Virus record (IMG/VR): IMGVR_UViG_3300017917_002782
Location: 1,022 to 65,021 of that record
Source: a virus
Lineage: Duplodnaviria > Caudoviricetes
Direction: 5' to 3' (one strand)
DNA: 64,000 nucleotides
The notes beneath the pieces were generated by a model. It was not told the origin of the DNA and ran no database searches. It worked only from the letters and a program-made list of their open reading frames with translations. Every line of letters begins with the position of its first letter. Positions within the stretch are counted from its first letter, which is position 1. The position numbers and the translations under genes were made by a program. Positions 42,088 through 47,926 of the stretch are shown here, in pieces.

Positions 42088-42507
42088 TGGTGGAGCCGGA
42101 GGGATTCGAACCCTCGTGTTGTTCGTTTTATTGTAGATGGACTACACGTTTATTCGATTATTCACAACCGACAAATAAATGGTTCCTATTTTGACATCGT
42201 TACCAATAACTGTGTCGGGTTCACTTTTACCATTTTCATGGGTTTATAGGTAGTTCCCTGAACGAGACCTTTGTTTCTTTTCGGGTAGAAACCACACCAT
42301 AGAGACTTCTGTTCCAAGGTACATGTCCGCCGACCCGTTAGTCACCACCGATTAGGCAGCAACTTTAGAAGTTGCAAGTAAACCTGCTACTTCCATGTTG
42401 TTGTAAACGTTGCCGTTTAAAATTCACCACCATGGATTAAAGTCTTAGATGACATCAGACTACGTGCCCATTTACACTAACAACGCCAATCAATTCCATT
42501 CGACCCC
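42088..42507 (-). ncRNA. ssrA: tmRNA, tag (A)GNVYNNMEVAGLLATSKVAA
   Basis: 5' GGGGTCG...3' GGTTCGAATCCC...GGCTCCACCA with G3-U70; internal ORF ending ...VAA-TAA; smpB nearby. Confidence 0.93.
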
Positions 42508-43900: not shown

Positions 43901-44026
43901 TGGCGGGGAGGGTGGGATTCGAACACCACGACCACGAGGTTAACAGCCTAAGAAGTAACTTAGCTTATAGCCGTATGTACAGAAATTAAACCAGTAATAC
44001 GTGCTCTACCACTGAGCTACCTACCC
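43901..44026 (-). ncRNA. tRNA-Asn(GTT)-like RNA with a 50-nt structured insert in the anticodon stem
   Basis: acceptor GGGTAGG/CCTCCCC-G-CCA, D arm GCTC/GAGC, CG[insert 43950-43999]AGG-CTGTTAA-CCTCG, T loop TTCGAAT. Confidence 0.8.
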
Positions 44027-44681: not shown

Positions 44682-46754
44682 TTACACACCCATCAATTTT
44701 CCTGTCTCTTCATAAGAGTAACAGAAGTCCTCGTACTTGAAGAATGTATCAACATTCTCGTCAAGAGTAACTTGTTTACCACGACCTTCTACGTGTAGAA
44801 GAACAAGGTCATAAACACTTACCTTTGGTAACTCAGCGTATTGTTGAATTACTTTAATAGTGTTTTTGAAGTCACTTCTTGCGGTTACGAAACCACTTGA
44901 ATCAATGTCCAACATGATGTACTCTTTAGTTTCCAAATCAATAATTGCGATTAACGTATTGGTTGATTTAGATTCCAATGATTGACAATTTGAAATTGTC
45001 TCAGGTAACCATGTCCTGTTTGATTCAGGGTGTTCTCTCTCCATGATACCGAAAGATGTTTCAAGTGTATCCAAACCACGACCATTGAAGTTTCTCACGT
45101 CAATAACCGCATATTTGTAACCACTCTTCAACGCATCTTGGATATCGATGTCGATGTACTCAGCACAAGGTCCTCTTCTGTGTCTCACATCACCTGAGTG
45201 AACTGATTTACCTACTTTCAAGTTACTGAAAGAAAGTACATCACTTTTTTTCTCACCAACAAAGGTAACACTTAAATCCAAGTCTTCAGAACCTCTTTCG
45301 TCCATCCAATGAACAAATGGTCTAATAACTTTTGCATCAGGGTTATCGAGTGGAACTCTTTGACCTCTGATTGTTGGTTTAGTTGAGAAGTTCATACTTC
45401 TCATGTTGGTTGGTAAAGGAATCTTTTTCAACTCCTCATCAATCCAACAGTTACCCAAAGAATCCATTACTGAAAACTTATCTCTAAGTGTTTCAAATAA
45501 TTTAGAGTGGATTGTTTCCACAATCTCTTTAGGAATTGCTGGTAGATTAGGTAATTCAGTACGTTTTCTTGCCCCTTTAATCATAATTGACCTATTTGTT
45601 TTAGGTTCAGTACGACCTTCGAAGTGTGAGTAAACTTCAAACAATACCTTGTTTGATGTACCTTTTACCGCCTCACCGAAGTATTTCATGATAAGTTCAA
45701 TATCTTTTGGATATGTACGAACCAACCAATCCATTCTTCTTGAGAATTCACCTGGTTTTTGAGATAAAACCCTCAAACCATTCTCCAAACCTTTTTTGAA
45801 TGATTCGTTAAGTAACCCATACCAAGAAGTAACCTTCTCGTTACGAATCTTATTGAACGATTCATAAGATTTAGGGAATAATTTCTTATATTCGCCTGGA
45901 TGTAAAATTTCACCCAAACGAACCCATCTTTGGTCTCTTAAAACCATTTCGCGAGTATCGCAATTGGTTTGTTCAAGTAAACCTAAGATGTATTTTCTTT
46001 CTTTACGAGAGAATTTTTTAAATTTGAATTTCTCTCTTTCAGGGTTTGTACCTTTTGTAGATGACCATCTGTTTAATCTAATTTCCTTTTCAGGAACTTT
46101 AGGTAAAGAGATATCACCACCCGAAAGATGAACCGCAATTCTTAACACATCGGTTGTGGTTTTAACTGGTAACCCTTCAATACCCATTGCTGCCAATGTA
46201 CACAAATTTTCTTTGAATGGAATTGTTCCAGGAAAAACAAGTTTATCACCACTTGATACGAACCACTTAACAATCTCAAGATCTTGAGGTGTTAATGAAG
46301 TGTTGATTGACACCAAATCAGTGAAGATTTTTGAAAACCTCTCTGATGTGCCATACTTAATCAAATTGTATTTGATTTTTTCGAACTTAATATCCTTTTC
46401 GTATGTATGGGTTGATGGTTCCCATTGACCATTACTCCAATAGTGCATGATTGCGTTCATGTACAATTCGAAGTCTGACATCACCATAACTTCTTGTGGG
46501 AAGTTTTTATATAATGGTTGGTAATTGCGTTTTCCGCCCATTACATTTTTCAAATGATTCAGAACTTCATCATTGAAGTTTTGGATAAACGATAAATCTG
46601 CTTTGGATAATTCGAAGAAGGCATCTTCGTCTAACATGTATCCCCATTGCATTAAGTGGGATTGTACTGTTGCTACTGCAATTCTGTTGTCCATACCATC
46701 GTTTGGAGGACATACCAAACCTTTTTGAAAGGATACTAAATTTCTTGTTGTCAT
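44682..46754 (-). CDS. helical (ROT/TROVE-like) + C-terminal TerD-like domain protein
   Basis: QPLYKNFP, TTTDVLR, LGEILHPGEY, PGEFSR; TerD-like HW...DLDLS...HSGD...AEYIDID. Confidence 0.75.
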   Translation of the reverse strand: MTTRNLVSFQKGLVCPPNDGMDNRIAVATVQSHLMQWGYMLDEDAFFELSKADLSFIQNFNDEVLNHLKNVMGGKRNYQPLYKNFPQEVMVMSDFELYMNAIMHYWSNGQWEPSTHTYEKDIKFEKIKYNLIKYGTSERFSKIFTDLVSINTSLTPQDLEIVKWFVSSGDKLVFPGTIPFKENLCTLAAMGIEGLPVKTTTDVLRIAVHLSGGDISLPKVPEKEIRLNRWSSTKGTNPEREKFKFKKFSRKERKYILGLLEQTNCDTREMVLRDQRWVRLGEILHPGEYKKLFPKSYESFNKIRNEKVTSWYGLLNESFKKGLENGLRVLSQKPGEFSRRMDWLVRTYPKDIELIMKYFGEAVKGTSNKVLFEVYSHFEGRTEPKTNRSIMIKGARKRTELPNLPAIPKEIVETIHSKLFETLRDKFSVMDSLGNCWIDEELKKIPLPTNMRSMNFSTKPTIRGQRVPLDNPDAKVIRPFVHWMDERGSEDLDLSVTFVGEKKSDVLSFSNLKVGKSVHSGDVRHRRGPCAEYIDIDIQDALKSGYKYAVIDVRNFNGRGLDTLETSFGIMEREHPESNRTWLPETISNCQSLESKSTNTLIAIIDLETKEYIMLDIDSSGFVTARSDFKNTIKVIQQYAELPKVSVYDLVLLHVEGRGKQVTLDENVDTFFKYEDFCYSYEETGKLMGV

Positions 46755-46859
46755 AAATGTTGTATTAAAATGTTTTATTAATGTTGTGGTACAAATATAC
46801 TAAACTTTTTTTAAATGTCAAGTTTTTTTTTATTTTTTTTTAAAAAGGTTCTGAATCGT

Positions 46860-47364
46860 CCCCACGCCATTTTGGGAGAACCTTTCAAGTTTTAGTAGTT
46901 TGGCGATATAGTATCCCTACCTATATTCCCAAGATTCGTTGGAACATAGTAACCATCCAAGGTAGGTCTCTTGTACTTTGGTCCGTCTGTCATCATACCC
47001 ATCCACCTTACGGCTTCTACACAGGTACTCTTTTCACCATTTCCTCAGGACATCTTCACCCTACCCCCAAAGTTACGTGGTGAGTCTCACTCGGAAGCTG
47101 AGTGTGTATTGTAGAATTGTCCAGTATTTCTACAACTTGTGGATTCTATTACGACTAATTAAAGCCCCTTACCCCCTCAATCCATAATGGGGAACTCTTT
47201 TTTAAAGTTTCCAACATACCTGACGGAACTTCCCCATCGTCAGTAAACCCCGTTTATTAGAGGTTATATGAATTTCACTTTTTGTGTATCCTCCCCCATA
47301 GCCTTGAAGACTTCAAGTCAGGTTCACACACCATAACGGACGAGTACCTCCGTTAATCGTGGGG
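46860..47364 (-). ncRNA. ~500-nt ORF-free structured RNA candidate
   Basis: GC-richer than its surroundings, many hairpins, ends CCCCACG/CGTGGGG complementary; directly follows a tRNA. Confidence 0.55.
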
Positions 47365-47368
47365 TCTT

Positions 47369-47443
47369 TGGTGGCTCCGGCGGGAATCGAACCCGCGACT
47401 ACCAGTTTTAGAGACCATAATGTTACCATTACACTACGGAGCC
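47369..47443 (-). tRNA. amber suppressor tRNA (anticodon CTA)
   Basis: GGCTCCG/CGGAGCC-A-CCA; loop CT-CTA-AA; T arm GCGGG-TTCGATT-CCCGC; weak anticodon stem. Confidence 0.8.
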
Positions 47444-47448
47444 ATTCG

Positions 47449-47519
47449 AGGTCGGGGATGGATTCAAACCACCCTAAAAGAGCTTGCGACTCTTCACCTA
47501 ATCGCTCGGTCACCCGACC
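47449..47519 (-). tRNA. degenerate tRNA-Cys(GCA)
   Basis: GGTCGGG/CCCGACC-T; loop TC-GCA-AG; T loop TTTGAAT (non-canonical). Confidence 0.55.
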
Positions 47520-47572
47520 ATTTGTGATTGATAACCTTAATCATCAATCACAGGTACAATATTAGAGATTAG

Positions 47573-47926
47573 TTACAACATCTCCAAATTATTTTGAAGA
47601 TTTTTTTCATAATCTTCTTTTTTGGTTTTTTTCTTAGGTGTATAACCCCTCTTAACTCTTTCTTTTTGAACTCTTTTCTTTAGACTTCTGTCTTGAAAAT
47701 AATTCCTCAATTCTTGAGAAGATTCTTCGTAGATCTTTTTAATTTCATCAAAAAGTTTTGCCTTATCTTCATCAGTTAATTTGGTTTTTCTTTTTTCTCT
47801 AACACAATCCCACCATTCTCTTGAATAGCGTTTGTGTTCGATGCATTCACCTAATAGTTTATGAATCTTGTTCGAGAAAGATGATTTAATCATCATTGTT
47901 GGGTTGTGTTGTGTTGTCTTTTTCAT
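47573..47926 (-). CDS. basic hypothetical protein
   Basis: ORF in the amber operon. Confidence 0.65.
   Translation of the reverse strand: MKKTTQHNPTMMIKSSFSNKIHKLLGECIEHKRYSREWWDCVREKRKTKLTDEDKAKLFDEIKKIYEESSQELRNYFQDRSLKKRVQKERVKRGYTPKKKTKKEDYEKNLQNNLEML

Follow-up and report, generated by a model that had tools for sequence, protein, structure and literature searches.

Between a transfer RNA (tRNA) gene with the anticodon CUA and the next protein-coding gene, a phage contig (Duplodnaviria; Caudoviricetes) carries about 500 nucleotides (nt), and the question raised by this locus is whether they encode a structured RNA and, if so, what kind of RNA it is. The DNA analysed comprises 64,000 nt (positions 1,022 to 65,021 of IMG/VR record IMGVR_UViG_3300017917_002782) and is called the window below; its source is a 65-kb viral contig with an estimated completeness of 21%, and its relatives are 310-kb phages. 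An earlier note, made from the letters of the window, had proposed at this place a large structured noncoding RNA without a known family, comparable to the RNAs GOLLD and ROOL that occur near phage tRNA clusters. Comparison with homologues gave a conserved and covarying structure, and a real, conserved family of structured RNAs almost certainly exists. The family consists of large, multi-domain, pseudoknotted noncoding RNAs inside the tRNA gene arrays of freshwater phages. The RNA lies on the tRNA strand, which is the minus strand of the window.

The element was delimited by homology to other contigs. A word scan with its 5′ end recovered two other viral contigs, and BLAST homology to both started at 47367 and stopped at 46844, with unrelated sequence on either side, so that the borders are essentially those that had been proposed. 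A second pattern scan returned three contigs, one of which (L035) was rejected as a family member since its common part was an 18-base word only. A pattern of the core motif matched 21 viral contigs, and a hairpin-tolerant pattern, with the stem of helix P6 left free, matched 55 contigs of the viral set and at least 120 of the metagenome set; the two sets overlap, and their contig counts are not additive. The family profile matched the window from 47367 to 46842 (nhmmer, E 1.1e-120) and gave exactly one match in each of 176 pattern-selected sequences. After removal of 36 partial and 26 duplicate matches, 114 unique full-length copies remained (402–537 nt, median 456). All family contigs come from viral or metagenome collections. 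The hairpin-tolerant pattern and a 20-mer had no match in 185,579 prokaryote species (one genome each), and blastn of the element against 50,697 GenBank phage records gave no match. Five large phage records (195–304 kb) carry one copy each (5/5), and no homologue of P0001, the 690-amino-acid (aa) protein encoded next to the element in the window, was found in them by BLASTP, which suggests that different phage lineages carry the RNA.

The structure was derived from alignment A1, in which 42 full-length unique copies, related to one another, were aligned by MAFFT over 571 columns with no structure input; counts were made on the 41 distinct rows. RNAalifold predicted 82 pairs, of which 43 showed compensatory double changes, compared to 28.4 in shuffled alignments and 8–20 when the structure was slid by 1–3 columns. 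Over the 82 pairs, 98.2% of the cells were paired, compared to 87.1% after shuffling (0 of 500 shuffles reached the observed value) and 36–48% after sliding. The covariation score was 0.376, compared to 0.167 for the shuffled and at most 0.099 for the slid controls. When 50 more unique metagenome copies were included, giving 91 distinct rows, each nested helix was at least 90.8% paired, and 12 of the 14 were at 97–100%. Tertiary pairings were sought by a mutual-information scan and a helix scan and were then counted. Three pseudoknots were obtained, of which PK-a and PK-b were 100% paired in the 91 rows and PK-c was 83.5% paired, where the alignment is loosest. The parts of the RNA, in 5′ to 3′ order and in window coordinates, are listed below.

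47294–47364, minus strand: 5′ domain, with P1 enclosing P2 and P3
47360–47364 (CCCCA) with 47294–47298 (UGGGG), minus strand: predicted helix P1, which never varies
47350–47354 with 47335–47339, minus strand: helix P2, double changes in 4/5 pairs
47318–47322 with 47302–47307, minus strand: helix P3, double changes in 2/5 pairs
47308–47310 (bases of the P3 loop) with 47289–47291, minus strand: PK-a, spanning 47289–47310, 100% paired
47199–47283, minus strand: optional insert 1 (85 nt), a three-way junction with the CTGACG/CGTCAG hairpin, present in about 15 of 41 distinct sequences
47172–47193, minus strand: P4 hairpin, UCCCC with GGGGG and a conserved 12-nt loop, supported by covariation
47151–47168, minus strand: P5 hairpin, its loop with an invariant UUAA, 100% paired, two pairs with double changes
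47108–47136, minus strand: P6 hairpin of nine pairs, 100% paired, five pairs with double changes
47119–47122 (GGAC of the P6 loop) with 47048–47051 (GUCC, columns 331–334), minus strand: PK-b, 100% paired
47100–47104 with 47088–47092, minus strand: helix P7, from the covariation count in A1
47079–47085 with 47063–47067, minus strand: helix P8, from the covariation count in A1
47063–47104, minus strand: region of the invariant G-rich core UUUGGGGGUAGGGUGAAG, with P7 and P8
46978–47039, minus strand: helix P9, closing variable insert 2 (46982–47035), 94.5% paired, three pairs with double changes
46960–46966 with 46916–46922, minus strand: helix P10, 100% paired, double changes in 6/7 pairs
46939–46944 with 46927–46932, minus strand: helix P11, inside P10, 100% paired, double changes in 6/6 pairs
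46902–46905 (CGCC) with 46865–46868 (GGCG of the terminal-hairpin loop), minus strand: PK-c, with 17, 10, 17 and 15 double changes at its pairs
46845–46884, minus strand: terminal hairpin P12/P13 followed by UUUUU, double changes in 7/7 pairs of P12

Individual pairs exchanged in a consistent manner. In PK-a, which joins the P3 loop to columns 81–83, pair 61:83 was GC in 29 rows, UA in nine, GU in two and AU in one; in PK-b, pair 257:333 was GC in 24 and AU in 17, and pair 256:334 was GC in 38 and AU in three. Pair 187:202 of P4 was CG in 32 and UA in nine rows without exception. Two size classes of the RNA were seen, and insert 1, which sets the long forms (that of the window included) apart from the short forms without it, has 15 pairs that were 88.6% paired compared to 26–46% when slid, 11 of them with double changes. 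The version of insert 2 found in the window otherwise occurs only in L068, and by our own reading the register of P9 is shifted by one base in the window.

Six hairpins had been pointed out in the earlier note, and five of them are kept with compensatory changes: TAACGG/CCGTTA corresponds to P2, TTGTAGAA/TTCTACAA to P6, ACTC/GAGT to P7 and AAAGGTTCT/AGAACCTTT to P12, and CTGACG/CGTCAG lies within the optional insert. The sixth, CTTGAAG/CTTCAAG, was in the wrong register; covariation favours CCTGA/TCAAGG (columns 48–52 with 64–69), and the stem as proposed falls in the loop. A helix that was thought to close the whole RNA, CCCCACG (47358–47364) with CGTGGGG (46860–46866), did not hold up either. 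Only 60.8% of its cells were paired, no double changes were found, and 500 of 500 shuffles did equally well. The base pair in its middle is intact in 7 of 41 rows, the 5′ segment being invariant and the 3′ segment varying; the latter pairs locally in P13 and with the upstream CGCC in PK-c.

The strand follows from the pairs themselves. Pairs 205:235, 210:227 and 242:270 are among several that are G-U with few or no exceptions, and such pairs would mismatch on the other strand, which places the RNA on the window minus strand. That strand is G-rich over the stretch, and the G+C content of 200-nt windows was 0.39–0.475 wholly inside and 0.27–0.36 beside it, in agreement with the description of the stretch as richer in G+C. 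It is likewise poor in open reading frames (ORFs), as had been said: no sense-strand ORF longer than 36 aa was found with translation table 11, and the longest frame from stop to stop, with TAG read as glutamine, had 67 aa.

In the window the module stands in a putative small operon. The features of the locus are, from upstream to downstream:

47573–47926: small protein gene
47448–47519, minus strand: atypical tRNA-like gene (ARAGORN, Cys-GCA), the first gene of the small operon
47369–47443, minus strand: tRNA with anticodon CUA, amber suppressor type (ARAGORN; Rfam tRNA, 59.4 bits)
46841–47367, minus strand: RNA module, long form, about 525 nt (BLAST borders, nhmmer hit, row 1 of A1)
46794–46821, minus strand: promoter-like site of gene P0001 (TTGACA, 16 nt, TATATT; 11/12 matches)
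44682–46754, minus strand: P0001, the 690-aa gene without an assigned function, next after the promoter-like site

As the earlier note had stated, the module directly follows the tRNA with anticodon CUA, with a 1-nt gap between them. The module begins with AGACCCCAC on the 5′ side and finishes with the P12 hairpin and UUUUU, and the promoter-like site is the downstream limit of the RNA unit. The module is a discrete insertion that is missing from close relatives. With the 690-aa protein as a query, 23 related loci of 74–96% identity were collected, and BLAST of the region against them matched the tRNA alone, in 3 of the 23. In the closest relative, L002, whose neighbour protein is 96% identical, this tRNA and this promoter region adjoin each other directly, so that L002 lacks about 520 nt that the window has. 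The module was not found in any of the 22 upstream regions read from related loci, and the nhmmer family profile had no match in the 31 loci L002–L032. Across L002–L023, a mosaic hot spot separates the tRNA array from the 690-aa gene; it holds small genes, tRNAs or nothing, depending on the relative, while the promoter region is conserved.

Flanking tRNAs on the same strand were counted with ARAGORN among the 114 unique copies; the counts are lower bounds because ARAGORN misses interrupted tRNAs. In 53 of the 110 copies that could be evaluated, the RNA is followed after 2–11 nt by a tRNA, whose identity may be Glu, Phe, Ile, Asp, Met or others. On the upstream side, a tRNA ends 1–3 nt before the RNA in 10 of 108 copies, the window included. 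A conserved extended hairpin of about 62 nt stands directly 5′ of the RNA in 30 of 108 copies, the window not being one of them, and in 13 of 108 a tRNA lies 55–80 nt upstream, as expected if the 62-nt module intervenes. Examples of this module are:

L034:1077–1150, minus strand: 62-nt module
L054:2236–2305, minus strand: 62-nt module
L043:6300–6369, plus strand: 62-nt module
L053:3375–3444, plus strand: 62-nt module

Its closing and inner stems show compensatory changes between loci when compared by eye, its folding z ranges from -2.2 to -3.7, and Rfam gave no match to it at E ≤ 10. It may be an optional 5′ domain of the RNA or a separate small RNA. On several contigs a box like the -7 promoter element of Bacteroidota stands just upstream of it. 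No conserved protein neighbour was found around the RNA; the commonest real ORF cluster occurred in 17 of 91 loci, and a larger cluster (22/91 loci) was discarded because it is a spurious ORF that runs antisense within the RNA. In 12 of 91 loci, a gene no more than 3 kb from the RNA encodes a protein with the cyclic-phosphate-processing receiver domain cREC_REC, a family linked to RNA repair, for example at L078:1668–2213 (plus strand; E 9.7e-21).

The last hairpin had been read as terminator-like, and a role simply as a terminator would fit poorly with the homologues, in 53 of 110 of which a tRNA begins 2–11 nt after it. The hairpin and the run of U residues are conserved, and the hairpin loop takes part in PK-c. 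A terminator scan did not call the 3′ hairpin, because its loop exceeds the size that the scan allows. In this phage the terminal hairpin and five U residues, standing before the next promoter, probably end the transcript.

The element was also present in RNA libraries. An index search gave 20 entries from 18 studies, six of these entries being RNA libraries, and evidence was drawn from three RNA runs and one DNA run. Contigs over the element were present in each of the three RNA-library runs, which belong to three studies (two riverine, one lake). The contigs stem from a mixture of family members; those of short forms lack the inserts, and some contigs reach into the 62-nt module. No RNA-run contig covered the flanking tRNAs or the gene of the window itself; the flanks were touched by one short X17 piece near 47600–47650 and, in X19, by one low-depth contig over a relative of P0001. 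Since the flanks are phage-specific and the runs mix relatives, these gaps say nothing on the limits of transcription.

The element was then compared to known RNA families. At the gathering score, no Rfam 15 family matched the element, either in the window or at 12 homologue loci, and at E ≤ 10 none matched its long form (searched over 46500–47700) or the short form in L043, so the statement that no known family could be assigned stands. The GOLLD model (RF02032) had no match to the element in the window, in the L043 short form or in the 12 loci, and the same model found true GOLLDs with 325 bits at L044:2193–2606 (minus strand) and 317 bits at L043:11836–12243 (plus strand), 5–6 kb from the element. 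Some phages thus carry two different large RNAs. The Rfam scan separates the element from these nearby GOLLDs, so that the family is distinct from GOLLD in the same neighbourhood, and the nhmmer profile misses the regions around them, so that it is not the variable 5′ half of GOLLD. The tRNA array of L043 that holds the new RNA also holds a freshwater-1 RNA (L043:3348–3409, plus strand). Bacterial RNase P RNA was considered and set aside, as no RNase P family matched at E ≤ 10; by our own reading, one G-rich segment loosely resembles an RNase P motif. Group I and group II introns were set aside as well, since no intron family matched at E ≤ 10 and the module is bounded by a tRNA end and a promoter, or by tRNAs on both sides.

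According to the preprint of Kretsch et al. 2024, GOLLD and ROOL are phage or prophage RNAs, often near tRNA islands, of unknown function, that form RNA-only nanocages. The new RNA resembles GOLLD as a large ornate phage RNA with no known protein partner, often near tRNA islands (Kretsch et al. 2024 preprint). It also shares with GOLLD the lake or freshwater origin and the combination of a conserved part with variable parts, and the two co-occur in 2 of the 12 scanned loci. It differs in size, with 402–537 nt compared to more than 800 nt for many GOLLDs (Kretsch et al. 2024 preprint), and no sequence or structure match was found at E ≤ 10. GOLLD forms a homo-oligomeric nanocage. ROOL has a size of about 500–600 nt. 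With ROOL, as described in the same preprint, the new RNA shares multiple pseudoknots, an occurrence in phages and prophages, often near tRNA islands, and the lack of a protein partner and of a known function. In contrast, no Rfam match to ROOL was obtained at E ≤ 10, in a scan without a ROOL-positive control. ROOL occurs in bacterial prophages, whereas two exact patterns of the new family were unmatched in the 185,579 species genomes. The host range differs too, in that the promoter-like boxes at the new loci resemble those of Bacteroidota. With its length of more than 400 nt, many covarying helices and pseudoknots, noncoding nature, tRNA-island context and absence of a conserved protein neighbour, the new RNA is of the same kind as GOLLD and ROOL, and it is absent from Rfam 15.

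A further comparison is offered by the stable RNAs of the phage T4 tRNA cluster (species 1 and 2, rnaC/rnaD), which are not tRNAs, have an unknown function and are freed by tRNA-processing enzymes. They are about 140 nt long and structurally simple, thus much smaller and simpler than the new RNA, and their release from tRNA precursors is the same route as proposed for it here. Fremin et al. 2023 (PMC10690425) listed 8,495 unnamed structured-RNA candidates from IMG/VR, obtained by comparative prediction with covariation; passages of that article describe tRNA-like motifs, terminators and leaders and no large RNA of tRNA arrays. Parts of the new family may figure, unnamed, among the 8,495 candidates of Fremin et al. 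2023. A literature search, with subscription journals and supplements outside its range, gave no description of the family.

How the RNA is made and what it does can be proposed from these results. On balance, we favour a trans-acting RNA particle that comes from a tRNA-operon precursor and has, by analogy, a scaffold, assembly or decoy role; taken as a whole, this statement is somewhat likely to be correct. The RNA would be transcribed on the tRNA strand within the precursor of a tRNA operon, which here would hold the tRNA-like gene, the tRNA with anticodon CUA and then the RNA. It would be freed by the machinery that matures the flanking tRNAs, its 5′ end being set by trimming of the 3′ end of the upstream tRNA. 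In most relatives, the 3′ end would arise from an RNase P cut at the tRNA that starts 2–11 nt downstream, and in this phage its own terminal hairpin and U tract would stop the transcript. Processing by RNase P and the tRNA 3′ enzymes is suggested by the gene layout, and we judge it reasonably probable. Once freed, the RNA would fold alone into a compact particle with at least 13 helices supported by covariation and three pseudoknots, and this particle would act in trans during infection. Its role would most likely be accessory, as a scaffold, assembly or decoy made of RNA only and connected with translation or tRNA biology, as the GOLLD and ROOL analogy suggests, and regulation of a neighbouring gene would be less likely. 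The trans-acting scaffold or decoy role, argued from that analogy, is the more tentative part, and we would stop short of calling it probable. Bolder, and rather unlikely, is the idea that the family could form a third, structurally unrelated class of phage RNAs that work as RNA-only machines, excised from tRNA precursors by RNase P and then either self-assembling into a higher-order particle or acting as a new ribozyme on tRNAs or the translation apparatus, and could in both cases serve freshwater phages of Bacteroidota as a weapon against host defences that target tRNAs.

Several points weigh against the reading as a conserved, processed and trans-acting RNA. The tested structure was derived from A1 itself, which gives it an advantage over the slid controls, and P1 and several core helices are invariant and thus predictions only. 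Columns 233–278 were fixed or restricted by the search pattern, and for this reason their conservation is partly by construction; the same applies to the invariance of the G-rich core motif, which served as a search pattern. RNAalifold also proposed a long-range helix at columns 184–197 that competes with PK-b and P4, and here we favour the covarying PK-b and P4. The minimum-free-energy fold of the window copy alone was unremarkable (z = -1.36; 6 of 100 shuffles equal), so that the evidence for structure is comparative and not that of a single-sequence fold, and the global model of that fold relied on an unsupported helix between the 5′ and 3′ ends. The data of the RNA runs are assemblies, which speak for presence in an RNA library rather than for transcription, ends or level. 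The window copy has no downstream tRNA, and RNase P consequently cannot set its 3′ end. Finally, five related phage records, among them two with a completeness of 93% and 100%, gave no BLAST match to the RNA; phages of that type can hence do without it, and this agrees with a selfish element as well.

Such an element would be a mobile cassette, intron-like or ribozyme-based and without an ORF, that spreads among phage tRNA arrays and whose structure serves its own mobility. This would account for the sharp-edged presence and absence between phages with a 96% identical neighbour protein, for the flanks that vary between contigs, for the single copies in large phage records without a BLASTP-detected P0001 homologue and for the dispensability in related genomes that are 93% and 100% complete. 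It is nevertheless improbable. No group I, group II or self-cleaving ribozyme model of Rfam 15 matched at E ≤ 10, and because the element lies between genes, not within one, there are no exons to rejoin. By our own reading, neither a target-site duplication nor terminal repeats were seen at the window/L002 junction. Endonucleases, integrases and reverse transcriptases are not regular neighbours, the element is never multi-copy, and subtypes keep particular downstream tRNAs (own reading, not tabulated), as in ordinary recombination of array cassettes. Slightly less probable still is a cis-acting leader or processing platform that guides or times RNase P at the adjacent tRNA, protects the precursor or senses a signal. 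The tightly clustered spacing of 2–11 nt to the tRNA in 53 of 110 copies speaks for it, as do several contigs that place the RNA and the 62-nt module between the promoter-like box and the tRNA. However, ARAGORN detected no tRNA directly downstream in the window or in half or more of the evaluable copies, the tRNAs that do follow are diverse (Glu, Phe, Ile, Asp, Met and others), and 400–540 nt with three pseudoknots far exceed what known tRNA leaders need; in addition, related phages have the same tRNA with anticodon CUA without the RNA module (L002).

We give equally little credence to a ribozyme that acts in trans, such as one that would replace, for the phage, an activity in tRNA processing or tRNA repair. 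Its size, its invariant unpaired core segments and its pseudoknots are typical of large ribozymes, the RNA is placed in a tRNA array, and neighbours of the RNA-repair type occur occasionally (the cREC_REC cluster in 12/91 loci), but neither RNase P nor another ribozyme family of Rfam 15 matches, the sporadic and dispensable distribution is unlike that of a core processing enzyme, and chemistry cannot be inferred from the sequence. That there is no functional RNA at all, and that the stretch is a hairpin-rich spacer, a decayed gene or a site of recombination or packaging at the DNA level, is extremely unlikely. The unremarkable fold energy of the single sequence and the absence of the stretch from close relatives would agree with it. 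The compensatory changes in 43 of 82 pairs with 98.2% of the cells paired, the strand-specific G-U pairs, the conserved ends in 114 unique copies, the lack of an open frame and the position of the optional domains at helix tips, as in other large RNAs, all argue for an RNA.

Large, intricately folded RNAs of bacteria and phages without a protein partner are rare, and OLE, GOLLD, ROOL and raiA each opened new structural biology. The new family occupies the same niche as GOLLD and ROOL, the phage tRNA islands, with an unrelated fold, and therefore offers an independent handle on what is selected in this niche. Its 114 unique natural variants are available for structure work, and it is a concrete test case for the release of such RNAs by tRNA-processing enzymes. 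RNA family catalogues should add the family, by which gaps of about 500 nt in phage annotation would be filled.

The genes around the module were also inspected. Pfam had no match for the flanking proteins P0001 and P0002, and PHROGs gave for P0001 only a family of unknown function. The tRNA-like gene at 47448–47519 had in Rfam a 20-bit tRNA-Sec match only, under the threshold; a perfect hairpin precedes this gene, and the same pair of the tRNA-like gene and the tRNA with anticodon CUA is found in L002. Despite this tRNA, no evidence of amber recoding was seen in the window, which covers 21% of the genome. Over the whole window the summed length of long ORFs was 15,434 aa with TAG read as sense, less than the 17,274 aa of the control with TGA read as sense, and 13,993 aa with the standard code; 5 of 46 long ORFs end in TAG. 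A transfer-messenger RNA (tmRNA) is encoded at 42088–42507 of the window (minus strand; 70 bits, full length, tag GNVYNNMEVAGLLATSKVAA), and by our own reading the relatives have an SmpB-like ORF upstream of the 690-aa gene. A 123-nt Rfam tRNA match at 43904–44026 (minus strand) was not reported by ARAGORN, which suggests an interrupted tRNA. By eye, tRNA halves are split by an A+T-rich insert of about 250 nt at about 3500–3950 of L016, and tRNAs of the GTCAGGTGGCG type carry inserts in several loci.

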